Positions 13,450 to 39,095 are shown, numbered from the stretch's first letter. The stretch is 64,000 nucleotides of DNA from Synergistaceae bacterium (GCA_017439345.1 JAFSJJ010000010.1:10442-74441), one strand, 5' to 3'. The notes: a model not told the origin generated them from the sequence alone. Numbers and translations are program-made.

Positions 13450-13453
13450 AGTT

Positions 13454-14437: not shown

Positions 14438-14479
14438 AACGTTAACTCCTTTGTTAGTAGAATCTTTTCGCTGAGATAA

Positions 14480-14647: not shown

Positions 14648-14659
14648 TTCATATTGTAT

Positions 14660-22185: not shown

Positions 22186-22961
22186 ATTTAAGAATACGAA
22201 AATTTTTGCAGAGACGAAGGAAGCTCGGCAGAATAACTAAGAAACCCGTTGAGTTCAGGCAGTTAGCCCCTAACATGGTAACCAGCGGCAATTTATTATG
22301 CGGTATATTCTCGTTAATGCTGGTGTTACATGGTAGATTTATTCCTGCTGCATGGATGATATTCTTTGCTGTGATATTCGACGGCTTCGACGGCAAAGTT
22401 GCCAGGATGCTCGGAGGAGGCTCTCAATTTGGACTCGAGTTCGACAGCTTGGCAGATCTAGTCAGCTTCGGTGTAGCTCCGTCAATATTGCTTTATCAAG
22501 TTTTCGTGAAAGAGCTTTATCTCATCGGCGCAGTATCGTCATGCTTCTTTGCGTTGTGTGTAGCTTTGAGGCTTGCGAGATTTAATATAGTTCATGTTCC
22601 CGGACCGTTTCAGGGTCTGCCTTGTCCTGCAGGAGGGTTATTCGTGGCTTCGTTCATAATTGCGAAAATTAATCTGCCCTCGTGGGTTATGGCTCTAATT
22701 CTGGTATTAACGGGCTTCCTTATGATCTCGAGTATTCCATATGCTAACATGAAGAAATTAACTAAGAAGACTGCTGACAAGACTAAATTCTTTGCTTTGT
22801 TATCGCTTATTGCAGTATCGTTTATCTTCCTGAAGAGTGCTGCTCCGTTATTCTTGTTCGCGTTGTATATAATAAGCGGCTTGATTAAATTCGACTGGGG
22901 AAGCTGGTTATTGAGACCTGAAGCAAGAGATGAAGCTCTGAGTACTTCACATAAGAAATAA
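22182..22961 (+). CDS. pssA: CDP-diacylglycerol--serine O-phosphatidyltransferase
   Basis: Has the CDP-alcohol phosphatidyltransferase motif DGFDGKVARMLGGGSQFGLEFDSLAD. The likely start is GTG 22182, which overlaps the psd stop as GTGA. The ORF-track TTG 22161 is an alternative. Confidence 0.85.
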   Translation: MNLRIRKFLQRRRKLGRITKKPVEFRQLAPNMVTSGNLLCGIFSLMLVLHGRFIPAAWMIFFAVIFDGFDGKVARMLGGGSQFGLEFDSLADLVSFGVAPSILLYQVFVKELYLIGAVSSCFFALCVALRLARFNIVHVPGPFQGLPCPAGGLFVASFIIAKINLPSWVMALILVLTGFLMISSIPYANMKKLTKKTADKTKFFALLSLIAVSFIFLKSAAPLFLFALYIISGLIKFDWGSWLLRPEARDEALSTSHKK

Positions 22962-22985
22962 TATTATATTTACTCAAAAAAAATT

Positions 22986-23025
22986 GCAGGCTCGAGAGAA
23001 ATTTTAATCCCCCGAACCTGCTTTT
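22986..23025. terminator. Bidirectional hairpin terminator between pssA and the convergent STAS gene
   Basis: GCAGGCTCG - 18-nt loop - CGAACCTGC (one mismatch), flanked by A8 upstream and TTTTATT downstream. Confidence 0.5.
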
Positions 23026-23039
23026 ATTGTGTGTGTTAA

Positions 23040-23339
23040 TTACTGAACGTTGAGAATTTCATCAAATCCTGTTGTCTCAAAAATCTTCATGACTTCCGGT
23101 ACAGCGTTCTTGATTACCATAGTTCCCTGCTGTGAATTCATGTACTTCTGAGCCTTCAGTAAAACTCTTAGTCCTGCCGATGAGACATAAGCTAGCTTTG
23201 ACATATCAACAACAAAATTCTTTACGCCCTTGAGATTAGTGCTTAAATCCTTTTCGAGCTGGTCTGCCGTTACTGCACTCAGCTTCTTATCGAGCGTCAA
23301 TGTAAGGTCTTGGCCGTTATCTGACTTGTCGAATATCAT
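23040..23339 (-). CDS. STAS-domain protein (SpoIIAA/RsbV-like anti-sigma-factor antagonist fold), 99 aa
   Basis: Contains DMSKLAYVSSAGLRVLLKAQK, with the conserved Ser-containing loop, and a C-terminal FETTGFDEILNV. Confidence 0.85.
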   Translation of the reverse strand: MIFDKSDNGQDLTLTLDKKLSAVTADQLEKDLSTNLKGVKNFVVDMSKLAYVSSAGLRVLLKAQKYMNSQQGTMVIKNAVPEVMKIFETTGFDEILNVQ

Positions 23340-23363
23340 ATTATGCCTCCTGCTTAATCACTC

Positions 23364-23657
23364 TTACTCAATGTTGAGCAGTTCATCGAAGCCCGTAACT
23401 TCGAATATTTCCCGTATCTCCTGACTTATATTCTTGACCGTCATGCTGCCCTGCTTGTTCATGATTTTCTGAGCCTTAAGTAAAACTCTCAATCCTGCTG
23501 ATGAGATATAAACAAGTTTGCTCATGTCCATAACTAGAGCTTTTACGCCCGCAAGTCCGCCGAGTTCAGCCTCAAGTTCAGGAGCTGTCGTGGTGTCAAG
23601 TCTGCCGTCAAGTGAAATTGTTAATTCGTCTCCGTTAGTTGTTTTGTTGATTAACAT
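23364..23657 (-). CDS. STAS-domain protein, 97 aa (tandem paralog)
   Basis: Contains DMSKLVYISSAGLRVLLKAQK and FEVTGFDELLNI. It is a clear paralog of 23040..23339. Confidence 0.85.
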   Translation of the reverse strand: MLINKTTNGDELTISLDGRLDTTTAPELEAELGGLAGVKALVMDMSKLVYISSAGLRVLLKAQKIMNKQGSMTVKNISQEIREIFEVTGFDELLNIE

Positions 23658-23661
23658 GTTT

Positions 23662-25524
23662 TTATTTGCCTCCAGATTTTAATAATTTTATTTTGTTAGC
23701 TGCGTCTGCTTTTAGACCCTTGAGATCTATTTTGCCGCTCCCAAGTACCGGAAGTTTATTATACACAATAAAGTATGAAGGTATCTTAAACTTCGATAAA
23801 TGTTTTGCTAATTCAGAACGTATGAATTTCTCATCGAATTTAGCTCCGTCCTTAAGCGTTATACATGCACAGACCTCTTCACCGAAAAATTCACTGGGAA
23901 CTCCGACAACTTTCACTTCTGAGATAATATCACTAAGTAAAGTTATTGCATTCTCAACTTCAATCGGAGTGATGTTCTCGCCGCCCCTGATGATTAACTC
24001 TTTCAATCTGCCTGATAATCTCAAGTAGCCGTCAGCGTCAATCATGCCTAAGTCTCCTGTGTGAAGCCAGCCTTCTGCGTCAATTGACTGGTCATCAATC
24101 GGAACTTTGTAATAGCCGAGCATTAAATTGCTGCCCTGAACGAGAATTTCTCCCTGCTGATTTATATCACAGTCTTGATTTGTCTCGATATTGCGTATCT
24201 TGATTTCGAGTATCCCGAACGGAAGCCCTACAGTGTGCAGAATATGATCTTGACTGTCATCTGCCTTAGTGAGTGAAACCGGAGCCATCTCGCTTAGTCC
24301 GTATGCTGACATGAAATGATTTGCGGGCATATTCTTCTGGAACATCTCAATCTGAGCCGGTGTTGCTGCTGCTGCTGATATTATCGTTCGTCTTAAGCTG
24401 GCGGCTTTATCAGGAGTGAAATTCTTGTTATTCACAAGAGCTATTAACATCGCCGGAACTGAGTGAAATATCGTGCATTGATGCTTCGAGATAAGCTCTA
24501 ATATCGTATCAGTTCTTATATTCTCAGGGAAATAAACGCTTGAATTCACGATCAAACTTGATAATAAATTCGCTACAAGTCCGAATATGTGAAATAACGG
24601 AGCAATTATGCAGCTTCTATCGCTTTCAGTTATGTTCATGCGCTTTGTGTTCTCAACTGAAGCGTTCATCAAGTTAAAATACGAGAGCAATACACCTTTG
24701 GGACGGCCTGATGAACCTGACGTAAATATTACAACTGCAGGATCGTCAGCTTCAAAGTCGTGCTGGTATTTATCTTTGATTGCGTCATATTCGCCGATAC
24801 GGGACTTGTAATTAATATCTTTCGCAAATGAGTACGTCTTAACGCCTTCAAGAGCAATATTTTTCTCGACTGCCTCGCCTATGCATAGATAATCAGTGTC
24901 AGAGATTTTCATAAACATAGACAATTCGCTTGCATTGAGATTAAAGTTTAACAACACTGCGATTGCCCCTAATTTCTGAAGTGCAAAGAACGTTAATACC
25001 CAGTTTGCAGAGTTTGCCCCGAGTATGCCTACATGAGAGCCTTTGTGAATTCCCAGCTTGCTTAAGTCATCGGCTATAACGTGAGAACATTGTTCTATTT
25101 CCTGCCAAGTATAAGAGTCAATTGCATCAAATAAAATTTTCCTGTATCCTGACTCATAAACGCTCTTAGCAAGAAATTTCTTGAAGTTAAAGTGTATCAG
25201 CTCGTCTAGCTTGCTCTCTGAATCATGCTTGATTAATTCAACGTTCAAAATCTGGTCAAAGCCGGTAGTCTCGAATATATCAAAGACTTCTTGAGTAACG
25301 TTTATAATCTTGAATTTATCCTTGAATCTCTTGGCACAGATTAATAATTCTCTAAGTCCGCTCGATGAGATATAAGGCACGTCCTTTAAGTCAAATATCA
25401 AAGCGTCTGCATCATCAGGGATTTTTGCAGCATTAAGCCTCAATTCAGGAGAACTAGCCGTATCTATTCTGCCGGAAAGTTTGGCCAGAAAGTTTTTGTT
25501 ATCCTGCTGAACCTGAAACTGCAT
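23662..25524 (-). CDS. N-terminal STAS domain fused to an ANL-superfamily acyl-AMP/CoA ligase
   Basis: Residues 1-~100 form a STAS domain (DLKDVPYISSSGLRELL, FETTGFDQILNV). These are followed by the AMP-binding motifs IFTSGSSGRPKGV, YGLSE, HTGDLG, IIRGGENI and GSGKIDLKGLK. Confidence 0.85.
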   Translation of the reverse strand: MQFQVQQDNKNFLAKLSGRIDTASSPELRLNAAKIPDDADALIFDLKDVPYISSSGLRELLICAKRFKDKFKIINVTQEVFDIFETTGFDQILNVELIKHDSESKLDELIHFNFKKFLAKSVYESGYRKILFDAIDSYTWQEIEQCSHVIADDLSKLGIHKGSHVGILGANSANWVLTFFALQKLGAIAVLLNFNLNASELSMFMKISDTDYLCIGEAVEKNIALEGVKTYSFAKDINYKSRIGEYDAIKDKYQHDFEADDPAVVIFTSGSSGRPKGVLLSYFNLMNASVENTKRMNITESDRSCIIAPLFHIFGLVANLLSSLIVNSSVYFPENIRTDTILELISKHQCTIFHSVPAMLIALVNNKNFTPDKAASLRRTIISAAAATPAQIEMFQKNMPANHFMSAYGLSEMAPVSLTKADDSQDHILHTVGLPFGILEIKIRNIETNQDCDINQQGEILVQGSNLMLGYYKVPIDDQSIDAEGWLHTGDLGMIDADGYLRLSGRLKELIIRGGENITPIEVENAITLLSDIISEVKVVGVPSEFFGEEVCACITLKDGAKFDEKFIRSELAKHLSKFKIPSYFIVYNKLPVLGSGKIDLKGLKADAANKIKLLKSGGK

Positions 25525-26396
25525 TATTGATTTAACTCCTTGTTGACGACATCGAGAATAACTGCGCGTAATTCAGGGTCTTCCAGTGCTAACTGGACAT
25601 TTGCCGAGAGCCAGCCTTTTTGAGTTCCGCAGTCAAATCTGCGTCCTTTGAAGACTACTCCCCATACTGGTTCTTGAGAGCATAATGTCTTGAGAGAGTC
25701 TGTGAGCTGAATTTCTCCGCCGGTGCCTGCCTGCTGGTTGTGCAATAACTCAAATATCTTAGGCGATAATACATAGCGTCCCATGATTGCTAAGTTGCTG
25801 GGTGCTTCCTCAAGCAAGGGCTTCTCTACCATGTCAACGATCTTGTGAATTCCTGGTTCAACTTCGAACTGAGATTTCACTATTCCATAGCGCGAGACGT
25901 TCTGAGGCTCGACCTCTTCAAGGGCTATGACACTGCCGCCCATCTTCTCATGAACGCGGATTAACTGGGCAATAACAGGGTCTTCAGGGTTAATAAATAC
26001 GTCATCGGGCAAAGCTACTGCAAAGAACTCATTCTTGCACATAGGCTCGGCACATAATACAGCGTGGCCAAGTCCTAGAGGCTGTCTCTGCCTGACAAAT
26101 AATATCTCGGCCATGTTCGCTATCTTGAGCATCTTCTCATAAAGTGCTACTTTGCCTCGTGATTTCAGCATTTCCTCGAGTTCAAACGACCGGTCAAAAT
26201 AGTCCTCAATTGAACGCTTGGCACGTCCTGTTATCATTATAATCTCGTTACAGCCTGAAGCTACTGCTTCTTCGACACCATACGAAATTATCGGACGATT
26301 GACAAGGGGAAGCATTTCCTTCGCAAGTTCCTTCGTTACAGGCAAAAAACGAGTCCCTAAACCAGCAACAGGAAATACACATTTCGTAATCTTCAT
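25524..26396 (-). CDS. galU: UTP--glucose-1-phosphate uridylyltransferase
   Basis: Has KCVFPVAGLGTRFLPVTKELAKEMLP at the N-terminus and VEKP. The stop overlaps the downstream ATG by 1 nt. Confidence 0.9.
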   Translation of the reverse strand: MKITKCVFPVAGLGTRFLPVTKELAKEMLPLVNRPIISYGVEEAVASGCNEIIMITGRAKRSIEDYFDRSFELEEMLKSRGKVALYEKMLKIANMAEILFVRQRQPLGLGHAVLCAEPMCKNEFFAVALPDDVFINPEDPVIAQLIRVHEKMGGSVIALEEVEPQNVSRYGIVKSQFEVEPGIHKIVDMVEKPLLEEAPSNLAIMGRYVLSPKIFELLHNQQAGTGGEIQLTDSLKTLCSQEPVWGVVFKGRRFDCGTQKGWLSANVQLALEDPELRAVILDVVNKELNQ

Positions 26397-26414
26397 GATA
26401 AATAAATTACCTCC

Positions 26415-28166
26415 TTAAAAATTTTGAGCAAACTGACTGTTATACAAATCCGCATAAAGTCCGTTCTTCGCTAATAATTCATCGTGAGTCCCGGCTTCAC
26501 AGACATCGCCGTTGTTCATGACTAGAATTAAATCAGCGTTCTTTATCGTCGATAACCTGTGAGCTATTACAAATGACGTTCGACCCTTCATTAAGTTATC
26601 AAGGGCTGACTGTATTATTTTCTCTGTCCTAGTATCTACGTTCGATGTAGCTTCGTCAAGTATCAATACAGGCGAGTTCTTTATCATTGCTCGTGCTATA
26701 GTGATTAACTGCTTCTGACCTGATGAAAGACTTGATATGTCATTTATAATCGTGTCTACGCCTTCGGGTAATGCCTTCACCGAGTAATCAAGACCTGATG
26801 CTTTTAATACGTCATTCAAGTTCTGATCTGAAATATTCTTGCTGGAATAAATAATATTATCTTTAACAGAACCTTCAAACGTCCATATATCCTGAGGCAC
26901 TAAGCCTATAAAGTCATGAAGCCTTTCACGCGATATTGTGCTGATGTCTACTCCGTCAAAGTATATTTTGCCGTCATTCAGGTCATAAAAACGCATTAAT
27001 AAATTCATCATCGTTGACTTGCCTGCGCCGGTCGGCCCTACGATTGCTACTTTCTGGCCGGATTTAATATCTGCGCTGAAATCATGAATTATAATCTGTC
27101 CGGGAACATAGCCGAATTTAACATGTGAGAATTTTACGTCTCCCATGATTTTATTATTATTATTCTCTTTCTCTGGTGAAGTTATTTCGCTGATTTCAGG
27201 CTCCTCGAGAAGCTCAAATATTCTCTCTGCTGAGGCCATCGCAGGCTGCAAGAACGATATGAACTGCGAGATATTTATCAACATCTGAGAAAATATATTC
27301 GAGTACGTCATAAATGCTACCATGACACCTAGTGTTACGCCTTCGGATTTCGAGAGAATTAAATTAGACGTTACAAATACTATCAAGAACTGCGCTATTA
27401 ACCCTCCTGCTGTCATTATGGGCTGCATTATTCCTGATACGAACTGCGATAACCTGGAGCTTTCATATAATTCATCATTGCCGGCTTCGAATAAGGCTTT
27501 AATTCTGTCCTCGTTGTTAAATGCCTTTATTACTGAATGACCGTTGAAGGCTTCTTCTGCAAGAGAATTCACTTTGCCTAACAACATCTGCTGCTTGATA
27601 AAATACGGCTGGGATCTGCCCATCAGGAATTTATTTATATTCAGGAATATAATACTCGTAATCACAGTAACAAGAGCTAATATCACATTCATATAGAGCA
27701 TTATGCACGATGCGCAGATTAATACTACTATTGACGTAACTATTGCGCTTAAATTATTCGTCAAGGCATTAACCATTATGTCTATATCAGTAGTTATCCG
27801 GCTCATAATATCTCCGGTCTGGCGGGTATCAAAATATGACAGGGGTATTCTATCAAGTTTGGCATTTATCTCAGTTCGTAAATCACGGCCCATTAACTGT
27901 GAGACATGAACAAGCATTATATTCTGAATGAACGTTAATAAACTTCCTCCGGCAAGAAATATCACAGCAAGTCCGGAATAATATAACACTTGATTAATAT
28001 TCATAGGCTTAGAAATTCCTGACGCTATCTCATCAGTGATTAGCTTGACTAACTGTGGCAGTACTATCGAAGCTATCGTCCCGATTAATGCAAGTATTAA
28101 CGAGATAAAAATTTTTGCGCTGTATATCTTGAGACGTGAATATATTTTTGCAATTAGTCTTAGCAT
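26415..28166 (-). CDS. ABC exporter subunit (TMD-NBD), consensus ATPase site
   Basis: Six-helix TMD. Walker A is GPTGAGKST, the signature is LSSGQKQL, Walker B is LILDEATSNVD and the H-loop is IAHRLST. Confidence 0.9.
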   Translation of the reverse strand: MLRLIAKIYSRLKIYSAKIFISLILALIGTIASIVLPQLVKLITDEIASGISKPMNINQVLYYSGLAVIFLAGGSLLTFIQNIMLVHVSQLMGRDLRTEINAKLDRIPLSYFDTRQTGDIMSRITTDIDIMVNALTNNLSAIVTSIVVLICASCIMLYMNVILALVTVITSIIFLNINKFLMGRSQPYFIKQQMLLGKVNSLAEEAFNGHSVIKAFNNEDRIKALFEAGNDELYESSRLSQFVSGIMQPIMTAGGLIAQFLIVFVTSNLILSKSEGVTLGVMVAFMTYSNIFSQMLINISQFISFLQPAMASAERIFELLEEPEISEITSPEKENNNNKIMGDVKFSHVKFGYVPGQIIIHDFSADIKSGQKVAIVGPTGAGKSTMMNLLMRFYDLNDGKIYFDGVDISTISRERLHDFIGLVPQDIWTFEGSVKDNIIYSSKNISDQNLNDVLKASGLDYSVKALPEGVDTIINDISSLSSGQKQLITIARAMIKNSPVLILDEATSNVDTRTEKIIQSALDNLMKGRTSFVIAHRLSTIKNADLILVMNNGDVCEAGTHDELLAKNGLYADLYNSQFAQNF

Positions 28167-28168
28167 GA

Positions 28169-29899
28169 TTAATCCTGTCCTGTCTGCGATTTCGCTATTT
28201 CCTGATAGAGTGGGCAGCTTTGCATTAACTCCGAATGAGTACCTTCACCGACTATGCGCCCTTTGTCTATCACTATGATTTTATCAGCGTTAATTATAGT
28301 GCTGATTCTCTGGGCTGCTATCAAGATCGTTGCGTCCTGAAATTCTTCTCGTAAGGCTTGGCGTAACTTCTTGTCAGTAACTAAATCAAGTGCCGAAAAC
28401 GAGTCATCGAATAAATATATCTCAGCAGATTTACTTACTGCGCGCGCGATTGTCAATCTCTGCCTCTGGCCTCCTGAAAAATTACCGCCCCCGTGTTCGA
28501 CTTGAGAATTATAGCTGTCAGGTCTGGCCTCGATAAAGTCTTTAGCCTGTGCAATTTCCGAAGCTCTCTCAAGATTATTATTATTCCCTGAGAAATTTAT
28601 ATTATCTGCTATAGTACCTGTGAACAAAATATTTTTCTGGGGGACATAGCCTATTCTTGAGCGTAAATCAGCAAGATTGAAGTCTTTAACGTCAACGCCG
28701 TCTACTAGAATTCTGCCCTCTGAAGCGTCATATAATCTGGGAATTAAATTCAAGAGCGAACTCTTTCCGCACCCTGTAGGCCCGATAAATGCTACTGTCT
28801 GACCTCGTGAAACACTAAATGATATATCATCAAGAGAATTTGCTCCTGCTCCGGGATACTTGAAGCTGACGTGATTGAATTCTATAGTTCCGGACTTCGC
28901 AATTTCGCCTGAATAATTACCGTCCTGAATGCTCACGGGAGAATTAATTACTTCATTCACGCGGCCTGAACATACTAATAATCTTGGGAGCTGAATAAGC
29001 ATTAACGTTATAATCATGAAAGCATTGATGACTATTCCGCTGTAGAAAAATGCTACCAGCATATCAGAAAACAGAGCAAGTTTCGCTGATGAGTCAGCAA
29101 GAGACATTATCATATATGCTCCGGTTACATAAATAATTATTCCCGGTATGCTCTGAAAGAACGTTAAAACAGGATACATCGCTGACATTCGGGAATTGAC
29201 ATATATATTAGTGTCAGTCAACGGCGCGTTTACGTCATTAAATCTCTTGGCCTGATAATCATAAGCGTTGTAGGCGTGAATTACTCTTATACCTGATATA
29301 TGCTCGAACGAAACTTGATTTAGCTTGTCAGTTAATTTATTTACTATTTTCATTCGGGGCGTTAATGACGTTATCAAGAATATCACGAATATTATTATAA
29401 TCAGGACTATCGAAGCTATTACACCAGTCCAGATATAATTTTGCTTTGATAAATTTATCACGGCTAGAATTCCGGTCAACGGAGCACGAATTATGATCAT
29501 AGGCAGCATTGATATAAACATTTGAATTTGCGTTATATCAAGTGTACAGCGCGTTAATAAGCTCGGCACTGTGAACTCGTTGACTTCCTTCAATGAGAAA
29601 TCTATAACTTTGTCAAATGTCCGTGTCCGTAATCTTTTAGCTATGATGCTTGCTAGTTTTGCCGTGAAATATACGCTTCCTACACCGCATAACAAATTAG
29701 CCCCCGCACAGGCTAACATCGCTAAACATAAAGGCACTATTGCACTGAACGGGGTATTATTATTCTGTAATAAAAGCGTTATATTCTTGATATATTCCGG
29801 GAATAACAAATCAAGTCTGGCCTGACATGCTATTAATACAAGAGCAATAACAAGCCAGATATATTCACGGGCTTTGATTTGACGAAATATATTTTTCAC
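28169..29899 (-). CDS. ABC exporter subunit (TMD-NBD), degenerate ATPase site
   Basis: Walker A is GPTGCGKSS and the signature is FSGGQRQR. Walker B is YLFDDSFSALD (catalytic Glu replaced by Asp) and the H-loop is IAAQRIST (His replaced by Gln). Confidence 0.9.
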   Translation of the reverse strand: MKNIFRQIKAREYIWLVIALVLIACQARLDLLFPEYIKNITLLLQNNNTPFSAIVPLCLAMLACAGANLLCGVGSVYFTAKLASIIAKRLRTRTFDKVIDFSLKEVNEFTVPSLLTRCTLDITQIQMFISMLPMIIIRAPLTGILAVINLSKQNYIWTGVIASIVLIIIIFVIFLITSLTPRMKIVNKLTDKLNQVSFEHISGIRVIHAYNAYDYQAKRFNDVNAPLTDTNIYVNSRMSAMYPVLTFFQSIPGIIIYVTGAYMIMSLADSSAKLALFSDMLVAFFYSGIVINAFMIITLMLIQLPRLLVCSGRVNEVINSPVSIQDGNYSGEIAKSGTIEFNHVSFKYPGAGANSLDDISFSVSRGQTVAFIGPTGCGKSSLLNLIPRLYDASEGRILVDGVDVKDFNLADLRSRIGYVPQKNILFTGTIADNINFSGNNNNLERASEIAQAKDFIEARPDSYNSQVEHGGGNFSGGQRQRLTIARAVSKSAEIYLFDDSFSALDLVTDKKLRQALREEFQDATILIAAQRISTIINADKIIVIDKGRIVGEGTHSELMQSCPLYQEIAKSQTGQD

Positions 29900-29905
29900 G
29901 TTATA

Positions 29906-31045: not shown

Positions 31046-31076
31046 GTAAATCATCTCCTGGATTAAATCGATTAAA

Positions 31077-31901
31077 TCAAATCAAATCAAAATTTTTCAG
31101 GGCGTTATATATTCCATCGTGATCTATGTCATCTGTTATATAATCCCCGTATTCTTTGGCTGCGTTTGAACCGTTGCCCATAACTATGCCGGTTCCTGAA
31201 GAGTTCAGCATTTCCAAATCATTAACGCTGTCTCCGAATGCATAAGTATCGCTCACTGACAAGCCGAGTTTCTCACAAAGCCTGCGAATTCCTGAACCCT
31301 TGCTCATGCCCTCAGGGACTATTTCGAAGACATCAAGGCGTTCACGATTTATAAATATGGGCTGCTGAATCAGGACATCATAATATTCTGACATGAGATT
31401 TAGAAATTTCACCCTGTCCCACTTGTCAGCTTCACTGCCTGCTACACATGTTGCCTTGCTGATTATTAATTCGCTGTCAACGTCAATATCGTTAATTGAA
31501 AGCAGATTATCGCCTACAGATTTTCTCAACGTGTCAACTTGTCCTGGAGGGTTAAAGCCTTCGGGGTCGAAATAAAGATTATAACGACCCTCGTAGACTG
31601 CACCGAACTTGTATTTACGAATGGCATTCAGTGTCTGAACAGCAAGCTCATGGGAAAGCTCATAATAAAATAACGTATTATTATCGTGTTCTATCAAAGT
31701 TCCGCAGCCGGATATTATTCCGCTGAAGCCTAGATTTATAACTTGAGACGGGATATTAACTTTCGTTCGTCCTGTGCAGATAAATGCAAGATTGCCTTTT
31801 TCCTGAAGCATTTTGATTGAATCACGTGTACTTTCAGGGATAAAGCCTTTGCTGGTCATTAAAGTCCCGTCTATATCAAAGAAAGCCGCTTTCCTGTTCA
31901 T
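31077..31901 (-). CDS. HAD-IIB (Cof-type) sugar-phosphate phosphatase
   Basis: Contains AAFFDIDGTLM, CTGR and the C-terminal GDSVNDLEM. Confidence 0.85.
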   Translation of the reverse strand: MNRKAAFFDIDGTLMTSKGFIPESTRDSIKMLQEKGNLAFICTGRTKVNIPSQVINLGFSGIISGCGTLIEHDNNTLFYYELSHELAVQTLNAIRKYKFGAVYEGRYNLYFDPEGFNPPGQVDTLRKSVGDNLLSINDIDVDSELIISKATCVAGSEADKWDRVKFLNLMSEYYDVLIQQPIFINRERLDVFEIVPEGMSKGSGIRRLCEKLGLSVSDTYAFGDSVNDLEMLNSSGTGIVMGNGSNAAKEYGDYITDDIDHDGIYNALKNFDLI

Positions 31902-31904
31902 GAT

Positions 31905-33221
31905 TTATTCATGAATTAAACGTTCGACTAACATTTTCTCACAGCTGATAATTCCGACATCGTTAATATAATTATCTATTCCGGCCTCACTAAATCTGCG
32001 TGAAATGCTCTGTACGAGTTTGTCGCTGTCAAATCTCTGCGTTAATCTGAACGTTATATCTTCCTCGTTAGCTCCAACGAAAATATAAAATCCGTCCGTC
32101 GTTGCATGAGGTTCCATTTGAACGCGTTCGACAAGCTGATAATATTCCGGCCTCAAAGTTACGCGTCCTGGATAAGTTATAACGTAAGTATCAGGATTTG
32201 AGCCTTCGTTTGAGTGTGCATTAGAATTCTCGCGTTCAATCTCTTCAATTGACTTAGTGCCGTTCTCAAAGCCTTTAACCGTATTAACTTTTCGTGCTAC
32301 GACAGAGCCGTAATTCTCTTTGTGCAGCTGTGCTTTCATGAAACCTGATAATTCAGTGCATATTTCCGGAAGACTCTTAACGCGTAATTCAGGAGTTATA
32401 GGCAGAATAAAGCTCTCTGAACAGTTCTCGTCAGTCCAGATATTATATAAGTGCCTCAAGTCAACAGGAATTTTCGCAATAATAGTCTGGTCTTCGGGTT
32501 TATACGTGTCATAGACGGCTAAAGTAGTGCATGTTACTAACAAGGGAACAAATGAGACGCCTAACTCTTTAGTCTTTGCTATGAACTGCTTTAGATTTAA
32601 CATGATTTCATAGCTGTGCATCTGGTCGCGTTCTTCAGGGTAAATATCTTCGACTTCAGGGGTCATGTGAAATAAATTCTCAGCCTTAAACTTCCATGAC
32701 GGCGCAATACTTTCATCGGCTAATACTGCATAAGGATTTACGAGGCCTTCTGCTTCGGGGCTGGCATGTAATCTAACGTCTTCATCGGGCTGAACGTCAA
32801 AGCCTTCAAGTTTCGCGTAGTGATATAAAAGCGTCTTCCAAATCGGCCATGATCCTTTGAAGTCCGTCATTCCGTGAAAGAATAATACTGAGAAAGACTT
32901 TTCACCGGTAATAAGAAAATAAAATAAATACCCGTTAGTGTCATCTGTGCCGTAATAGTGCCTTACATCAGGGTCATCAAAGAACGCTATTTCTTTATCA
33001 GAATTATCGATCTTCCAGACCTTATTATCTTTTATTACGGGTCTGAATGCAAAGTTAGGGTATGCCTCAAAAGTTTTCTTGGCTGCAAGTTTCAGATGTT
33101 CGAGATTAACAGGCCTGGTAAGCGTGAAGCTCATTCGGTTGCTGAATGTCGTTGAATGTCCTGCTCCCCTGTAGAACATCATTTTGTTAGAGTAACCTAG
33201 TTCCCTAAGTTCCATATTCAT
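31905..33221 (-). CDS. Condensation/CAT-superfamily-like acyltransferase (HxxxD = HGMTD)
   Basis: Start moved to ATG 33221, 12 nt after AGGAGTG. Contains FFHGMTDFKGSWP. It is a paralog of 37800..39095 along its full length. Confidence 0.65.
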   Translation of the reverse strand: MNMELRELGYSNKMMFYRGAGHSTTFSNRMSFTLTRPVNLEHLKLAAKKTFEAYPNFAFRPVIKDNKVWKIDNSDKEIAFFDDPDVRHYYGTDDTNGYLFYFLITGEKSFSVLFFHGMTDFKGSWPIWKTLLYHYAKLEGFDVQPDEDVRLHASPEAEGLVNPYAVLADESIAPSWKFKAENLFHMTPEVEDIYPEERDQMHSYEIMLNLKQFIAKTKELGVSFVPLLVTCTTLAVYDTYKPEDQTIIAKIPVDLRHLYNIWTDENCSESFILPITPELRVKSLPEICTELSGFMKAQLHKENYGSVVARKVNTVKGFENGTKSIEEIERENSNAHSNEGSNPDTYVITYPGRVTLRPEYYQLVERVQMEPHATTDGFYIFVGANEEDITFRLTQRFDSDKLVQSISRRFSEAGIDNYINDVGIISCEKMLVERLIHE

Positions 33222-33262
33222 GATAAATAAAATCACTCCTTAATAAATTTAAGAAAAAATAC

Positions 33263-35827
33263 TTATCTAGCGCACACACTCTGAATTATACGCGACTTGA
33301 AAAATTTTATTGCTTTTGGACTGTCCGTAACGTGAACGGGGTCTATTGCATCAGGTAAAACATTACGCTTATACTGGAGAATATCACGATATAATATATG
33401 CGTCTTTGGCTCGTTGAACATGATTTTGACTTCACGGGACAGCATTCTTGATACAAGATTTTCTGCACGTGAAATTTTTTCCTTATCGAGTTTTACGCCT
33501 TCATAATACGGAAGCTCCAGAATTAGGCAGTAAGTCTCATCGTCCTTGAAAAATACGAAATCACGGACTTCAATATTTATCTCGCGCTCGCACAATATTG
33601 CAGATTCGTACATATCATCTTCGCTTATTCCCCCGTAAATAGCATAACGCCTTCCTGGAGCTGAGAATATTAAATTCTTATCCGTGAGTTCTTCTGCCTT
33701 GATTATAAGTTCTGTCCTGTATCTATAAAGCCCTGCCAATGTCGATACTATCAGCCTGTAAGACCTGCCCGGTTCTAACTGGTGAGCGTAATACATTCTG
33801 CCGTCATCAAGAGCTTCGAATTCATAAAATGCTGATGTCAAACACAACTTGAACATGTCATGAGAATACACGCTGCCTGCAAAGACTTCTTCTGAGGCAA
33901 TTCCGGCATTCTCTACTGGAATATTCTTTACATATAATTTCAGGTGATGAGCATGTATCTTGAACGCTCCTGAAGTGTTGCATATGAATTTCTCAAGCTC
34001 TGGCCATATCTGACTTATTGCATCGTCTGCATAGAAATCTACTGTCCTGAGTTCTTCGGCCCGTGCCTTATCCGGTGAAATTCTCTTGTTCAGAGCTTCC
34101 CTTAAGCTGTCGGGGAGACCTTCTCTATCACTGATACAGCCTGCTTCTATGTCATTGCAAAGTTCCTGCCAGTGTTCGAACATAAACTCAAGATTATCAA
34201 TCAGTATCCATGCATTAGGCGCGAAAATAACGTCAAGGCCTCGTTCCTTGAGTGCAAAGAATAACCGTGCGTAATCGGCATTCAATATCTCATTCGGGAA
34301 CATCAGCTCAACAGGATTTATCAAATTCAGCCTGTTATTCAGTTCAGTCAAATTGTTCGAGTATAATTCTGACAATATCAAGCCCAGCAAAGTATTTGTA
34401 TACGTGTTGTCCAAGTCAAGACCGGATGAGTGATACGGCAGACTTTCAAGCATCAGGAAAATTTTACGCCCTGCAATCAGCTTCCGAAACTCATCAACGT
34501 AATATTTCAAGTGCCTCTGTGTAAACGGAAGCCTTCTCGCTTTACCCATTATGCCGTGAGTCAGGGCATACGATGTTATGTCGCTGTCTGTGAATATTCC
34601 TGTCTCTGCTATTCTTGCTGTAAGTCTTATCATAGGCTCGTAAGTGTCATAATCAGTCAAGGGCAGCCGCGAAGAATAACCTTCCATTGTCATTATATTC
34701 TCGAACTGATAGCGTTTTCCGTAATCAGAGTGTTCACCGTTCTCAAGAATATTCTTCAATATTTGAGCCTGACAATCTTTCACAGTTATGGGCATTGGCT
34801 GTCTTCGATACGAGATAAAGCTCCGGCTTGAGTCTAATTCTCCCTCATTGATTATAACCTGAGGAAGTGTCAAAAGCTCTTTGCGCCTCTGGTCAGAATA
34901 TAATTTTGTCGCAGGCAGAGGAGTCAGCATTCTCACATATGGTTCAAGAATTTCACGTATTTCATTGCGCGTCTCTTTAGTAATAACAGTGCTTGAGAGT
35001 ATCAGCATTGCCTCATGGGTCAACAAATTATGCATGACATCATTCATATTGAACCCGAAACTCAGACCGGTATCAAATATTTTCTTGAAGCCTAGTGCAT
35101 ACGATATTAACTTCTCATTCGAAAGATCCGTTGCCTGTACAAGCGAGGCACTGTTCACAAAATACACATAGCCAATTAACTGAGGCAGCAAACATACATT
35201 ATCAGCATAACCATACGCCTTGACGTTGAAAGCAAAATCCTCTGCAAAGAATATATCTTCGTCAAAACGCAGATTATGTTCATCGAGAAATTTACGCCTG
35301 TACAGCTTTGAAGTTACCATGCCCCATATTACGTTAAAAATTTTCTTGTCGTCCCAGTTATGCCTGTTCACTACAATGCGTTCTTGAGTCTGATCCCACA
35401 AAACTTTTTCGTTCAAGATTAAGTGCGACTCAGCCTCTAACTCAATCTCACGCCGGAACGCGCATATATCAGAGTTCGTGTTGATTATATTATTCAACGC
35501 AGATTTTATACACTCAGGGGTATATTTATCATCGCCGTCAAGAAATCCTACATAATCGCCCGATGCATGTTCAAGCGCGTAATTTCTGGGACTTGAAGGG
35601 GTGTGATAATCATTATCAAGAATGCATATTTTCACGTTGTCATAACCTGCAAGCATTGTCCGTATACTGTCTTGATAGTCTTTAGGCGAATTGTGAACCG
35701 CCACTACCCACTCAATATCAGCAAAGCCGAACGTCTGAGCCTTCATTGACTCAAACGCCCGTGCGAAGATATTTAAATCTACGTTGTGAAGAGGTGTTAT
35801 TACAGAAATTTTATAATAATCTCTCAT
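33263..35827 (-). CDS. Fusion protein: N-terminal GT2 glycosyltransferase plus C-terminal GH3-like (acyl-acid amido synthetase type) adenylating domain
   Basis: GT2 part: ISVITPLHNV...FLDGDD. From about residue 345 it shows the GH3 pattern AQILKNILENGEHSDYGKRYQFENI...RLPLTDYDTYEPMIRL...SYALTHGIMGKARRLPFT. Confidence 0.7.
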   Translation of the reverse strand: MRDYYKISVITPLHNVDLNIFARAFESMKAQTFGFADIEWVVAVHNSPKDYQDSIRTMLAGYDNVKICILDNDYHTPSSPRNYALEHASGDYVGFLDGDDKYTPECIKSALNNIINTNSDICAFRREIELEAESHLILNEKVLWDQTQERIVVNRHNWDDKKIFNVIWGMVTSKLYRRKFLDEHNLRFDEDIFFAEDFAFNVKAYGYADNVCLLPQLIGYVYFVNSASLVQATDLSNEKLISYALGFKKIFDTGLSFGFNMNDVMHNLLTHEAMLILSSTVITKETRNEIREILEPYVRMLTPLPATKLYSDQRRKELLTLPQVIINEGELDSSRSFISYRRQPMPITVKDCQAQILKNILENGEHSDYGKRYQFENIMTMEGYSSRLPLTDYDTYEPMIRLTARIAETGIFTDSDITSYALTHGIMGKARRLPFTQRHLKYYVDEFRKLIAGRKIFLMLESLPYHSSGLDLDNTYTNTLLGLILSELYSNNLTELNNRLNLINPVELMFPNEILNADYARLFFALKERGLDVIFAPNAWILIDNLEFMFEHWQELCNDIEAGCISDREGLPDSLREALNKRISPDKARAEELRTVDFYADDAISQIWPELEKFICNTSGAFKIHAHHLKLYVKNIPVENAGIASEEVFAGSVYSHDMFKLCLTSAFYEFEALDDGRMYYAHQLEPGRSYRLIVSTLAGLYRYRTELIIKAEELTDKNLIFSAPGRRYAIYGGISEDDMYESAILCEREINIEVRDFVFFKDDETYCLILELPYYEGVKLDKEKISRAENLVSRMLSREVKIMFNEPKTHILYRDILQYKRNVLPDAIDPVHVTDSPKAIKFFKSRIIQSVCAR

Positions 35828-37796
35828 GAGTTGCTAAGAAATTCTTTATATCAAAATCCGTGCTGAACAGGAAATCAAGGTTGTAATTATTATGCCCGTC
35901 CTTGTCTTTGGTTATTGACATGTCATCTGATGCAAACGCAATAATCTTTGCGCTCTCAGAAGTCTTGCGCTGTTTCTCGAAATCATAAGGCTGGCCGGAA
36001 TCTTTGAACGTAAGCCTGAGGTAATCACTAAAGCATACTAGATCTAAGTGAATATCGCCTACGTCATCAAATGCGTTCATAATGCGCTCGATAAGCATTT
36101 CTTCTGAAGCAAGACGGATTCTGCGCGCCTTTCTGACATCAAAGCCGAACTGCATTGCATAGCCTTCTATCATCGAAATTAACGGGTCTATAGCATATGA
36201 AGTGTTCTTGACTACAACACTGCTGACTTCAACGCCCTTCTTGAGTTCGCCTTCAAGTTCAAGGGTTCTCAGCTTCATTAACATATCGACATGCAGTTTT
36301 CTCTGGTCAATTTTGCCTGTAGCATTCAGCGGGAACTTGTCATATATAAAGAAATACGCAGGGACTTTGAACGAGCCTACAGTTTCCTTAAGATGCTTGC
36401 GTAATGCGTCCTCATCAAATTTTGCGCCTTCCTTGAGAGTTATGCACGCACCCAAGTTCTCACCGTAAAGCCTGTCTTTGAAGCCGAATATACGACATTC
36501 CTTAATGCCTTCTAAGCTGATTGCCTGAGCCTCGATTTCGCCGGGGGTGATATTCTCTCCGCCCTTGATAATAATATCTTTAATGCGTCCTGCGATTCTT
36601 ACGTTGCCGTCTTCGTCCATAACGCCTAAATCTCCGGTATGGAACCAGCCGTTTTCGTCAATAGCCTGTTTCTCCGGAGGCAGCTTGTAATATCCGTTCT
36701 TAACATGGAAGCCTCGAGTTACAAGTTCGCCGACTTCTCCAGCAGGAAGCAGCTGATTATTTTCACCGCAAATGCCTATCTCGACTTCAGGTATTCTGCG
36801 TCCTATTGTGTTATGCCTCACTGAAATATTATCTTCAGGCCGTGCCATAATGAAAACTGTAGCTGTCTCAGTCATTCCGAACATATTCAAGAACGTTGCG
36901 TTATTCAATGCCGTCTCAAACCTCACGAACTGAACAGGTGACGTATAACTTCCTGCTATTCCGCACATCCTGACATACGGCGCGCATTTGGCTGTAGCGT
37001 CTTTGCTGTCTATTATAGACTGATATACTGCTGCTACTGACCATAAGTCGCTTACATGCTCTCTATTTACTATATCGGCTATAGCGTCAGCTTTCACTTT
37101 CTCAGGAATATATACAGTTCCGCCAAGACATAAATATATGCACGGGATACTCAATCCAAACGCATGGAACAGGGGAAGTGCTACACATGCCTTAGTGCCT
37201 CGAATTGACTTGAACTCATCGGCAAATATCAGCGAACAGTTAATCATCGAGTACTGTGAAGTCAATACAGCCTTAGGAAATGAAGTAGTCCCTGAAGTGT
37301 AAATAATATATGCATCGTCCTTAATGTCCCATTTTGAGTCATCAACAGCAATTTTCTCACATGAAGCAAAATCCGTCTCAAGATACGAGAACACTTTATC
37401 TTGAGGAAGCTCAAAGGATTTAGCTAGCATTTCAGCCTCTGAAGCAACACCTTTAGTATCATGAGTAGCTCCGTAAAGGACATATTTAGAATCTGCAAAT
37501 GTTACTAACGGGGTTACATCATTGATAGAATAATTCGAGTTAAGGCACACTGCAACACCGCCGGCGTGAACAATGCCGTAATAAGTGCAGAGCCATTCAG
37601 GTGAAGGACTTCCCCATATTACAACATGGTCATTTTTCTTGACACCGTGCTTGACTAGATACGATGATACAGCGTCAATATTCTCAATCAGCTGCTTGTA
37701 AGTAACCCGCTTATCTCCCATTACAACAGCGTCTTTGTCAGGGTGCAGGGCTGCCTGCTCGGTGAATATCTGATAATACGTCTTGTTTGTGAACAT
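35811..37796 (-). CDS. ANL-superfamily acyl-AMP/CoA ligase with a C-terminal RsbW/SpoIIAB-like domain
   Basis: AMP-binding motifs are IIYTSGTTSFPKAV, FGMTET, HTGDLG, IIKGGENI and ATGKIDQRKL. An extra ~140 aa follows (residues ~520-661), containing RRIRLASEEMLIERIMNAF...GDIHLDLVCFSDYLRLTFKDSGQPYDF. Confidence 0.8.
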   Translation of the reverse strand: MFTNKTYYQIFTEQAALHPDKDAVVMGDKRVTYKQLIENIDAVSSYLVKHGVKKNDHVVIWGSPSPEWLCTYYGIVHAGGVAVCLNSNYSINDVTPLVTFADSKYVLYGATHDTKGVASEAEMLAKSFELPQDKVFSYLETDFASCEKIAVDDSKWDIKDDAYIIYTSGTTSFPKAVLTSQYSMINCSLIFADEFKSIRGTKACVALPLFHAFGLSIPCIYLCLGGTVYIPEKVKADAIADIVNREHVSDLWSVAAVYQSIIDSKDATAKCAPYVRMCGIAGSYTSPVQFVRFETALNNATFLNMFGMTETATVFIMARPEDNISVRHNTIGRRIPEVEIGICGENNQLLPAGEVGELVTRGFHVKNGYYKLPPEKQAIDENGWFHTGDLGVMDEDGNVRIAGRIKDIIIKGGENITPGEIEAQAISLEGIKECRIFGFKDRLYGENLGACITLKEGAKFDEDALRKHLKETVGSFKVPAYFFIYDKFPLNATGKIDQRKLHVDMLMKLRTLELEGELKKGVEVSSVVVKNTSYAIDPLISMIEGYAMQFGFDVRKARRIRLASEEMLIERIMNAFDDVGDIHLDLVCFSDYLRLTFKDSGQPYDFEKQRKTSESAKIIAFASDDMSITKDKDGHNNYNLDFLFSTDFDIKNFLATHERLL

Positions 37797-37799
37797 GTT

Positions 37800-39095
37800 T
37801 TATTCAACCTTTCTTAATTTTTCTAAGTCTACTATATTATGACTTATACGGCCTCTATCCGTGAATTCAGTCTTGAAGCCTGCTTTGATCAGCTCAGAGT
37901 TCATCGCACGCGCTAATTTATCATCATCAAATCTCTGAATTGACGTAACGTTCAGAATATCTCTAAACGTAGTTATAATGAAATACGACAAAGCAAACGG
38001 AGCATCAACGAAAATATTCTCGAACAGGTCATTAACTGCGCCGGGCATATCCATAATGCCAAGATAACTTGTACCGTAAGTTACTCCGCCGGGAACTGAT
38101 GACGTAAGCTCTTTACTCTTTGATATAATATCCTCTTTCTCGAACTCCCGAACCGCACAAGCCTTGTTGTATAACGATTTAGCGTAATTCTCAGGCTTCC
38201 TTTGAAGATTAATGACGTTCTTAATATAAGCGCAGAAATCTTCATCATTCATTGCAAGCTCTTGACTTGACACAGGGATAAACACAGCGTCTGAGAAATT
38301 CACTATGCTTGAACACTTGAACACAGCACGAAGATCAACGGGCAGGGCAGTTAATATATTCCGTGAGCCGATATCATAATTATTATTTACAGCTTTTACC
38401 ATAAGACTTATCATCAACGGCATAAAACTTGTATGCATTGACTTTGAAGCCTTCAGAAATTCACTCAGGCTCAGGGTAATTCTATAGTGATGAGAGTACG
38501 TTTCAGCAGGATTATAGAACTCAACTGGAAGCGGGTAATAATTCGCGAAGTCCGGCACAAACGACGGCTCTATGTCCTTATCAGCAAAAGTATTATACGG
38601 GTCAAGATTTTCAGGAGTATCCCAGTTTTCAGGCTCTTTAGTCCTTATTTCGGCCTTAGCAAGTTCTTCAGGTGAGAGTTCAATCTTTGCGTAATAATAC
38701 AATGCTGTCTTGAGAAAACTGCTCAGACCCCGCCAGTCAGATATTCCGTGATACATCGAGATAATAACATGCTTATCATCTTCAGAGTCCTGAATAATTG
38801 CCATCAAGTACCCGTTAGTCTCATCTGAACCGAGATTAATTATACGGTCATGTCTGATTACTTTCACAGGTGCATTATTGCTCTCAAAGAAAATTTTGCC
38901 TTCTTTAATTACAGGTCTGTAAGCGAACTCCGGGAAAAGCGATAAAGCCTTCTCGAGACCTGCTCTCAGCGCGTCAACATCAACTTTGGACTTGAAATAA
39001 AGATTAACTCGAACGTCCATAGTTGCACCACTACCCGAAGCTGTATAGTAAAAATATTTGTCAGAAGCTCCGGGAACACGTAAATTACTATTCAT
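37800..39095 (-). CDS. Condensation/CAT-superfamily-like acyltransferase (HxxxD = HGISD)
   Basis: Contains SMYHGISDWRGLSSF. It is a paralog of 31905..33221 (shared ETNGYL, YYYAK and LPVDLR blocks). Confidence 0.65.
   Translation of the reverse strand: MNSNLRVPGASDKYFYYTASGSGATMDVRVNLYFKSKVDVDALRAGLEKALSLFPEFAYRPVIKEGKIFFESNNAPVKVIRHDRIINLGSDETNGYLMAIIQDSEDDKHVIISMYHGISDWRGLSSFLKTALYYYAKIELSPEELAKAEIRTKEPENWDTPENLDPYNTFADKDIEPSFVPDFANYYPLPVEFYNPAETYSHHYRITLSLSEFLKASKSMHTSFMPLMISLMVKAVNNNYDIGSRNILTALPVDLRAVFKCSSIVNFSDAVFIPVSSQELAMNDEDFCAYIKNVINLQRKPENYAKSLYNKACAVREFEKEDIISKSKELTSSVPGGVTYGTSYLGIMDMPGAVNDLFENIFVDAPFALSYFIITTFRDILNVTSIQRFDDDKLARAMNSELIKAGFKTEFTDRGRISHNIVDLEKLRKVE

Follow-up and report, generated by a model that had tools for sequence, protein, structure and literature searches.

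The window analysed here is a stretch of 64,000 nucleotides from a Synergistaceae bacterium (GCA_017439345.1 JAFSJJ010000010.1:10442-74441). It carries, on its minus strand, a biosynthetic operon of 17.5 kb that is closed by three genes bearing a STAS domain, one of which is fused to an acyl-activating ligase. A second ligase of the same operon ends in a domain resembling RsbW and SpoIIAB. The features at the centre of the argument are listed below, with positions counted from the first letter of the window.

22986..23021, minus strand: intrinsic terminator ending the operon, a 14-bp stem, 8 of its pairs G-C, and then a T run
23040..23339, minus strand: free STAS protein of 99 amino acids, RsbV/SpoIIAA class, last gene of the operon (Pfam STAS, E=7.7e-17)
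23364..23657, minus strand: free STAS protein of 97 amino acids (Pfam STAS, E=2.6e-15)
23662..25524, minus strand: STAS-ANL fusion of 620 amino acids, comprising a STAS domain, a linker of about 30 amino acids and an acyl-CoA-ligase-like adenylating enzyme (Pfam)
25237..25524, minus strand: STAS domain at the N-terminus of the 620-amino-acid ligase, residues 1-96 (Pfam match over residues 3-96, E=3.3e-10)
35811..37796, minus strand: ANL ligase of 661 amino acids with an RsbW-like domain, here called ANL-RsbWl (Pfam AMP-binding, E=2.4e-66, and AMP-binding_C)
35811..36284, minus strand: RsbW/SpoIIAB-like domain, predicted to be a pseudokinase, forming the C-terminal 157 amino acids of the 661-amino-acid ligase, beyond the ANL fold (profile search, AlphaFold2 model and Foldseek)

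The three STAS genes are separated by gaps of 4 and 24 nt, both small STAS genes are preceded by a GGAGG Shine-Dalgarno sequence, and the region 22800-26500 contains just one terminator-like site, at 23021-22986, 3' of the last STAS gene. An earlier note, made from this DNA alone, had described three paralogous STAS domains at the end of the operon, one of them fused to a ligase, and had quoted motifs shared between them; the open reading frames lie where that description places them, and both Pfam and alignment agree with it. The three domains score 61.4, 56.5 and 40.1 bits against the Pfam STAS model (PF01740; cut-off 22.6), and the two free proteins score 64.0 and 64.1 bits with the NCBIfam anti-sigma factor antagonist model TIGR00377, above its cut-off of 53.45. 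In a three-way alignment, the 99-amino-acid protein is 58% identical to its 97-amino-acid paralogue and 31% identical to the ligase-fused domain, and the motifs Y(I/V)SS(A/S)GLRxLL and FE(T/V)TGFD..LN are common to all three. Matches of the 97-amino-acid protein in the PDB include 4hyl (E=1.3e-12), RsbV (6m36_B, E=3.8e-8) and SpoIIAA (1th8_B, E=9.4e-8); a profile of the window STAS domains finds the same proteins (4hyl, 2.5e-16; RsbV, 1.9e-13; SpoIIAA, 8e-12), and its strong matches are anti-sigma antagonists only. Similarity to MlaB is weak (NCBIfam E=4e-4 and 7e-4; PDB chain 7ch8_K, E=0.012), the free proteins reaching 20.8 and 19.9 bits with the MlaB equivalog model NF033618, for which the cut-off is 90. 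Among PDB matches of the profile at E<=1, there is no RsbS or RsbR chain and no YchM/SLC26-type STAS besides the best transporter STAS (E=0.33), and no SLC26-type membrane domain is attached to the window proteins.

In RsbV/SpoIIAA-class STAS domains, helix alpha2 has the phosphorylatable Ser at its N-terminus. Aligned to solved structures with HMMER, the phospho-Ser column of SpoIIAA and RsbV coincides with the second Ser of 'SSAG' in the window domains, and this column is also the position changed to Ala in structure 1tid_B. The Ser that the earlier note had recognized as that of the SpoIIAA/RsbV phospho-loop is, thus, indeed kept in all three domains. The corresponding residue of the STAS-ANL protein, Ser54, is unchanged across 25 diverse STAS-ANL homologues, and an alignment read by eye shows the phospho-acceptor Ser in 54 of 54 unique STAS domains from the related loci that were fetched. 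As judged from these comparisons, the three window domains belong to the RsbV/SpoIIAA class and retain its phospho-acceptor Ser.

The C-terminal domain of the 661-amino-acid ligase is more divergent. As a single sequence, these 157 amino acids match HATPase_c_2 (PF13581) with E=1.1e-3 (19.4 bits, against a gathering threshold of 27.4) and RsbW with E=0.056. An exhaustive search yielded 58 representatives of the domain, mostly forming the C-terminal end of ligases some 660-680 amino acids long, and a 34-member profile matched RsbW in the PDB (6m36) with E=3.9e-9. The AlphaFold2 model has a predicted local distance difference test score (pLDDT) of 94.8, and its top 19 Foldseek matches are all RsbW, SpoIIAB or UsfX, with target-normalised TM-scores of up to 0.91. 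These three proteins are anti-sigma kinases that have been crystallised with their STAS partners. The motifs required for catalysis were compared in an alignment of the RsbW-like family, the intact kinases of related loci, and the RsbW and SpoIIAB sequences of Bacillus. In the ligase-fused domains, the Mg-binding Asn of the N box is replaced by Glu, and some 12 residues are missing, among them the ATP lid and the G2 box with its GGLG; of the 34 family representatives, 26 have Glu or Asp in the Asn column and 33 lack a GxG motif. Free and PP2C-fused kinases in related loci retain both the N-box Asn and the G2 motif. The domain of the 661-amino-acid ligase is considered a pseudokinase because N-box Asn, ATP lid and G2 box have all been lost. 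The earlier note's proposal of an RsbW-like domain at this position therefore stands as regards the RsbW/SpoIIAB fold, which profile, model and fold search all show, but kinase activity is not to be expected of this predicted pseudokinase.

The earlier note had also claimed that no sigma factor, anti-sigma kinase or PP2C phosphatase gene lies nearby. By Pfam, no sigma factor, SpoIIE/PP2C domain (PF07228) or canonical HATPase_c_2 domain is encoded by about 50 long open reading frames of the window, a set that includes nearly every one of at least 100 amino acids. PP2C and HATPase_c_2 profiles built for this analysis were run on all window open reading frames of at least 50 amino acids, and their single match was the C-terminal domain of the 661-amino-acid ligase. 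The 10 kb past each window end, bringing the total examined to about 84 kb, likewise contain no sigma factor, PP2C or kinase. The claim holds, then, for window and flanks, with the RsbW-like domain of the ligase as the one feature by which it has to be qualified.

Proteins with the architecture of the 620-amino-acid ligase are frequent. STAS and AMP-binding domains are combined in 119 of its 120 best database matches, which are about 50-56% identical to it and come mostly from metagenome-assembled genomes (MAGs) of Lachnospiraceae, under generic names only. A scan of species-representative genomes gave 34 STAS-ANL loci, nearly all from rumen Lachnospiraceae/Clostridiales and some from Selenomonadales, including the isolates Lachnospiraceae XBB2008 and [Eubacterium] cellulosolvens LD2006. 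The earlier note had regarded a STAS-ANL architecture that was both common and already characterised as telling against its proposal; it is common, but a literature search that did not cover all journals found no paper describing STAS-ANL or ANL-RsbW-like proteins. The related loci (numbered with the prefix L below) are largely short metagenomic contigs, and were mapped with profiles built for this analysis, key cases only being verified with Pfam.

Genes for partner-switch components recur at these loci. Sensor phosphatases of the HAMP-SpoIIE or dCache-SpoIIE type directly adjoin STAS-ANL in L014, L016, L018, L019, L023, L026, L028, L029, L030 and L032, and intact HATPase_c_2 kinases are encoded near it in L003, L010, L012, L021, L018, L029, L030 and L032. 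After de-duplication, 23 STAS-ANL loci span at least 8 kb; 12 of them contain PP2C and/or HATPase_c_2 domains, often adjacent at 0-76 bp, and nine contain PP2C. A genome generally has only a handful of PP2C and RsbW-type kinase genes, and we infer that their presence in about half of these 20-gene neighbourhoods is far above chance. Where Pfam gene tables were made for related loci, they contain no sigma factor. The order of the window, STAS-ANL followed by a STAS gene of about 99 codons, is syntenic with L003, L010, L012, L021 and L030, and the 97-amino-acid STAS protein is 59-64% identical to the product of the STAS gene directly after STAS-ANL in the Lachnospiraceae loci L003 and L030. Past this pair, at positions of about 14.5-19.6 kb in the locus, the same five loci encode a second STAS protein, an intact HATPase_c_2 kinase, a GGDEF protein and a YitT membrane protein, and the L030 array also includes a dCache-SpoIIE phosphatase; the layout of these Lachnospiraceae loci is SiaABCD-like. 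In one related locus, STAS-ANL lies beside a nonribosomal peptide synthetase (NRPS) with a carrier domain of its own.

The second fusion type was surveyed through three context look-ups, two Synergistaceae relatives and 63 metagenome loci, the scan profile consisting of nine closer sequences. A database protein from a Synergistaceae MAG is 100% identical to the 661-amino-acid ligase. Of the 51 loci left after de-duplication, 32 have a C-like acyltransferase gene no more than 300 bp away from ANL-RsbWl. STAS domains are encoded in L005, L033, L042, L059 and L100, and PP2C in L005, L042, L055, L057, L059 and L100. L005 combines STAS with a SpoIIE-HATPase_c_2 protein, L042 combines STAS with MatE-HATPase_c_2 and SpoIIE, and L033 has STAS; active-type kinases are encoded in the related loci L003, L005, L018 and L030. 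Both fusion types are, thus, conserved as families, and sensor PP2C phosphatases and intact RsbW-type kinases are repeatedly encoded next to them. In [Eubacterium] cellulosolvens LD2006, a truncated STAS protein of 81 amino acids (L033:10001-10246), of the ANL-fused type and 53% identical to that of the window, is encoded upstream of Acyl_transf_3, an ANL-RsbW-like ligase, a free STAS and three C-like genes, and it may be the remnant of a STAS-ANL gene.

Each of the two domains is also found on other proteins. STAS domains of the window's clade are fused N-terminally to APH-family (aminoglycoside/choline-kinase-like) phosphotransferases in L009, L013, L031 and L034. These loci include the clusters most like the downstream half of the window operon, and HATPase_c_2 is absent within 10 kb there. 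In another set of fusions, called X-STAS here, a STAS domain of this clade is C-terminal on a domain of about 330 amino acids; Pfam identifies this domain as an LCM-like methyltransferase in L075 and L084 and gives no match in L055. L055, L075 and L086 have the order ANL-RsbWl, C-like, C-like (in some cases with a third C-like gene), X-STAS, and in L084 the fusion is on the opposite strand.

L009:49-1353, L031:3887-5152, L031:5118-6455, L013:2174-3358 and L034:11900-13045: STAS-APH fusions
L075:5032-6369, L055:9359-10648, L084:6672-7925 (minus strand) and L086:4487-5722: X-STAS fusions

The RsbW-like domain, for its part, also occurs at the N-terminus of GNAT acyltransferases of about 480 amino acids (P0278, P0284, P0286 and P0291) and at the C-terminus of MatE exporters (L001:19254-21032; L042:8314-9999), where the G2 box is degenerate too.

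The remaining genes of the operon point to the pathway in which the two ligases take part, and they are, in the direction of transcription, the following.

39088-40590, minus strand: carboxylesterase, the 5'-most gene of the operon (Pfam)
37800..39095, minus strand: C-like HxxxD acyltransferase of 431 amino acids, in no Pfam family, with an HGISD motif, directly upstream of the 661-amino-acid ligase
33263..35827, minus strand: fusion of a GT2 glycosyltransferase and a GH3 acyl-acid amido synthetase, 854 amino acids (Pfam)
31905..33236, minus strand: C-like HxxxD acyltransferase of 443 amino acids (AlphaFold2 model with pLDDT 89.2 and predicted TM-score 0.88; Foldseek)
31077-31901, minus strand: HAD hydrolase (Pfam)
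29906-31054, minus strand: GT2 glycosyltransferase (Pfam)
26415..29899, minus strand: pair of ABC exporter half-transporters of 576 and 583 amino acids (Pfam ABC_membrane and ABC_tran)
25524-26396, minus strand: GalU-like nucleotidyltransferase (Pfam)

Both ligases belong to the ANL family (PF00501 and PF13193), with Pfam E-values of 4.9e-68 and 2.4e-66 and the core motifs present, namely TSGxxGxPKG and a GK with the catalytic Lys close to the C-terminus; in the 620-amino-acid protein, AMP-binding covers residues 129-472 and AMP-binding_C residues 522-598. The motifs can be read in the translations of the two ligases (IFTSGSSGRPKGV and SGKID; IYTSGTTSFPKAV and TGKID). Acyl-CoA ligases are the best-scoring NCBIfam class for both, the best match of the 620-amino-acid protein being the long-chain-fatty-acid--CoA ligase model PRK06187 (350 bits, under its cut-off). 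The 431- and 443-amino-acid proteins are paralogues with an HxxxD motif in which H121 and D125 are invariant. This family has no sequence match in Pfam, NCBIfam or the PDB and was placed by fold search alone; only 18 homologues came from a word-indexed search of 5.8 billion proteins. The model of the 443-amino-acid protein has a two-lobed CAT-like fold and 254 Foldseek matches at E<=0.001, led by PapA5 (1q9j, E=6e-15) and followed by NRPS condensation domains and BAHD/TRI acyltransferases. Some members of the PapA5/BAHD/condensation superfamily use acyl-CoA, for example BAHD, TRI101 and TRI3. No open reading frame resembling a PP-binding domain or acyl carrier protein (ACP) was found in the operon with Pfam or with a crude AcpP profile of low sensitivity, which barely detected the known NRPS carrier of L001; the missing carrier needs no special explanation, because the acyltransferase superfamily includes acyl-CoA-using members. 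With its two acyl-activating ligases, two HxxxD acyltransferases, glycosyltransferases and amido synthetase, the operon looks like a pathway feeding an exporter, and its product is likely to be an acylated glycoconjugate. The GT2-GH3 protein has a faint NCBIfam match (21 bits, far under the cut-off) to OlsH, a lyso-ornithine-lipid synthetase, and this is a hint of amino-acid-lipid chemistry.

The two halves of the operon have separate relatives. The upstream half (carboxylesterase, C-like, ANL-RsbWl and GT2-GH3) recurs in L043, beside an RND pump, without STAS and with a ligase 70% identical to that of the window. The downstream half (C-like, HAD, GT2, ABC pair, GalU, STAS-ANL and STAS) has its closest relatives in Lachnospiraceae, at 40-55% identity. 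This suggests, on the strength of such comparisons, that the operon was assembled from two modules (23040-33236 and 33263-40590) and that the downstream half was gained by horizontal transfer. The G+C content is uniform across the operon, at about 0.40-0.42. Orthologues of the ABC pair (E=1e-129 to 1e-175) adjoin STAS-ANL in L009, L015, L018, L022, L027, L031 and L034, and an orthologue of the GT2-GH3 protein comes directly after STAS-ANL in L031 (E=2.5e-113). RND/OEP efflux genes lie upstream of the operon (Pfam), which agrees with a Synergistaceae origin. Elsewhere in the window, a protein of the Double-GTPase 2 family (PF19993) is encoded beside a 757-amino-acid dynamin-like GTPase and two open reading frames in no family (12225-16933, minus strand); they might serve in defence or membrane remodelling, with no connection to the STAS genes.

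The earlier note had offered two readings of the STAS domains, as a partner switch that regulates enzyme activity or as modules that recruit a carrier protein, and the first of these is better supported than the second. It draws support from the RsbW-like domain, the RsbV class of the STAS domains and the PP2C and kinase genes at homologous loci, with the refinement that the local domain is a pseudokinase and that the window has no phosphatase. The two domains are suggested to pair here because known binding partners occur as complementary fusions. We give about an even chance to the reading in which the three STAS domains and the RsbW-like pseudokinase form an interaction module of the partner-switch type that acts on enzymes and not on a sigma factor. 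By analogy with RsbV and RsbW, an unphosphorylated STAS domain, either the one tethered to the ligase or one of the two free proteins, would bind the pseudokinase domain. Binding would then either join the two ligases or displace another partner from the RsbW-like domain, most plausibly the neighbouring PapA5-like acyltransferase, whose gene is a near-obligate neighbour and which would take the role that sigma-B has for RsbW. In both cases the pathway's acyl activation and transfer would be turned on or off, and the free STAS proteins may compete with, or buffer, the ligase-tethered one. Phosphorylation of the invariant Ser probably gates STAS binding; such gating is to be expected because the Ser is kept in every member, even in loci without a visible kinase. 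If binding is gated in this way, the kinase and the PP2C would be encoded outside the 84 kb or so examined, since phosphorylation by the local RsbW-like domain is implausible.

Several observations weigh against this partner-switch reading. Phospho-gating can only be proposed here, since window and flanks contain no kinase or PP2C; given a pseudokinase and no phosphatase in the window, either the source of phosphorylation lies elsewhere in the genome or binding is independent of phosphorylation. Among ANL-RsbWl loci with sufficient context, about half lack a nearby STAS, PP2C or kinase (L006, L043, L065, L068, L076, L083 and L094), and because about half of its loci lack STAS, the RsbW-like domain must have a role that is independent of a locally encoded STAS protein. 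The STAS-ANL clusters that most resemble the window (L009, L015, L022, L027, L031 and L034) have no HATPase_c_2 domain within 10 kb. Finally, the ATP lid touches STAS in SpoIIAB complexes, and its loss might also lower the binding of STAS by the RsbW-like domain.

A broader version of the partner-switch reading can be put forward only tentatively. STAS and pseudokinase domains would be unrecognised docking-and-gating tags for specialised-metabolite pathways without carriers, joining ligases, APH proteins, methyltransferases, GNATs and MatE exporters in one complex; sensor PP2Cs and kinases would switch its assembly through the STAS Ser, and the RsbW-like domain would hold the PapA5-like acyltransferase, as RsbW does sigma-B, until STAS displaced it.

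Some of the evidence would also suit another arrangement, which seems to us rather unlikely, in which STAS and pseudokinase are a heterodimerising pair that docks the pathway enzymes constitutively (here the two ligases and the PapA5-like acyltransferases, in other loci APH kinases, a methyltransferase and MatE exporters), no phosphorylation taking place in this organism. A partner domain predicted to be catalytically dead throughout its family, the 84 kb or so without kinase or PP2C and the fusion of both domains to varied pathway enzymes and an exporter would all fit such docking, as would L075, L084 and L086, short contigs that combine ANL-RsbWl, C-like and methyltransferase-STAS genes with no visible PP2C. 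Pure docking, however, does not need the phospho-acceptor Ser that is conserved everywhere, nor does it account for the PP2C and intact kinase genes frequent beside both fusion families, and the two free STAS proteins would bring no enzyme to the complex. The exporter is another candidate target. If the window STAS domains bound the nucleotide-binding domains of the adjacent exporter pair and modulated export, as MlaB does with MlaF, then the orthologous ABC pairs that accompany STAS-ANL in at least seven related loci as well as in the window, and the weak MlaB similarity, would be explained. The RsbV/SpoIIAA matches are nevertheless at least 10 orders of magnitude better than those to MlaB (20-21 bits against 90), L003-type loci have STAS-ANL and STAS without such an exporter, and the window ABC proteins are fused half-transporters of the exporter type and not of the MlaFE type. 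The RsbW-like domain and the PP2C and kinase neighbours would also be left unexplained, making this idea quite unlikely. We think it very unlikely that the free STAS proteins are conventional anti-sigma antagonists, acting on a sigma/anti-sigma pair elsewhere and carried along with the horizontally gained half. They do pass the TIGR00377 superfamily model, and the STAS-ANL and STAS pair apparently came from a Lachnospiraceae-like donor; but the STAS genes appear to be co-transcribed at the end of a biosynthetic operon, one copy has been duplicated locally and retained, and the related loci with Pfam gene tables are free of sigma factors.

The second reading of the earlier note, in which STAS docks the host ACP onto the ligase in the manner of the YchM/DauA STAS domain, fared poorly and is now highly improbable. 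STAS-ACP binding by YchM is on record, as cited within PMC5613929, and the operon has no ACP-like open reading frame detectable with the low-sensitivity profile. At E<=1, however, the window profile detects no SLC26/YchM STAS other than the transporter match given above, the ligases resemble CoA ligases, and the PapA5/BAHD fold of the acyltransferases includes CoA-dependent families, so that a carrier is not required. STAS-ANL also occurs next to the NRPS that has its own carrier domain, STAS is fused to carrier-independent enzymes (APH and methyltransferase), and many loci with ANL and C-like genes lack STAS. A related candidate, STAS itself serving as the acyl carrier, was rejected in view of these STAS-less loci and of the carrier-bearing NRPS. 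An assembly like the stressosome was considered as well, with the free STAS proteins (RsbS-like) and the enzyme-fused STAS (RsbR-like) in an oligomeric core onto which the RsbT/RsbW-like domain of the ligase would dock. The list of parts is parallel (STAS-only protein, STAS with an extra domain and GHKL-type partner), and STAS-enzyme fusions are present in L009, L031 and L034, loci without an RsbW-like domain. Given that the window domains match RsbV/SpoIIAA structures and not those of RsbS/RsbR at E<=1, and that STAS is N-terminal in the window ligase but C-terminal in RsbR, such an assembly must be regarded as extremely doubtful.

Partner-switching modules are textbook regulators of sigma factors. 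Their direct action on enzymes has been shown just recently, for SiaABCD and in a 2026 preprint on All4160. In the window, both halves of such a module are fused to pathway enzymes, and related fusions, including those to exporters, abound among Synergistaceae and the Firmicutes of rumen and gut. If the binding proposed here is real, a large group of uncharacterised biosynthetic gene clusters would have a post-translational on/off switch, a natural kinase fold would have been reduced to a pure binding module, and the pair could be a possible tool in engineered enzyme docking. The findings also make testable the binding partner of STAS proteins such as SypA in biosynthetic loci, for example Vibrio syp.

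The closest precedent is All4160, a sugar transferase of Anabaena PCC 7120 whose N-terminal STAS domain is phosphorylated in vitro by RsbW-type kinases, and which is genetically under the control of the SpoIIE-type phosphatase HenR, direct dephosphorylation not having been demonstrated (bioRxiv 10.64898/2026.04.08.717354). STAS-glycosyltransferase fusions of this kind are widespread in cyanobacteria (bioRxiv 10.64898/2026.04.08.717354), and a 2021 review names All4160 as a non-transporter multidomain STAS protein. The All4160/HenR/Alr3423 system and the window STAS-ANL protein are alike in having a biosynthetic enzyme that bears, at its N-terminus, a STAS domain whose phospho-Ser is conserved. 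Control of All4160 is post-translational and involves no sigma factor, and SpoIIE phosphatases and RsbW-type kinases are encoded beside the homologues of the window protein. The window enzyme is, however, an ANL ligase and not a Bac_transf glycosyltransferase, a second ligase bears the RsbW-like pseudokinase, and there are two additional free STAS paralogues and no kinase or phosphatase in the window. A partner switch also acts on an enzyme in the SiaABCD system of Pseudomonas aeruginosa, where the PP2C SiaA, the RsbW-like kinase SiaB and the small phosphorylatable partner SiaC control, through direct binding, the diguanylate cyclase SiaD and not a sigma factor (PMC8457831, PMC7647112). The SiaB-SiaC complex (PDB 6kko) is among the fold matches of the window RsbW-like domain. 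SiaC, by contrast, falls outside the STAS family of Pfam and takes its phosphate on Thr, and SiaD has no fused STAS or RsbW-like domain; relatives of the L003/L030 type, which combine STAS, GGDEF, PP2C and kinase, are closer to SiaABCD than the window is.

With the Bacillus switches RsbV-RsbW-sigmaB and SpoIIAA-SpoIIAB-sigmaF, the window shares the class of its STAS domains, their conserved Ser and the partner-domain fold, but it has no sigma factor or PP2C, and its RsbW-like domain is part of an enzyme and no longer has the ATP-binding motifs. In the syp polysaccharide locus of Vibrio fischeri, the STAS-only protein SypA, the partner of SypE, controls product formation post-transcriptionally (PMC4517449, PMC10120452). 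SypA, like the free STAS proteins of the window, is encoded within a biosynthetic and export locus, but that locus also encodes, in SypE, both a PP2C and an active kinase, and syp has no known fusions of STAS or RsbW-like domains to enzymes. MlaB-MlaF (PMC7367683) and the YchM/DauA STAS-ACP pair resemble the window in using the STAS fold in lipid transport or metabolism rather than in transcription; the similarity of the window domains is nevertheless marginal to MlaB and undetectable to YchM, and neither system has an RsbW-like partner. What sets the window apart from these precedents is the absence of a local kinase or phosphatase, the ANL ligase class of the enzyme, the pseudokinase on a second enzyme of the same pathway, and the complementary fusions to APH, methyltransferase, GNAT and MatE proteins.

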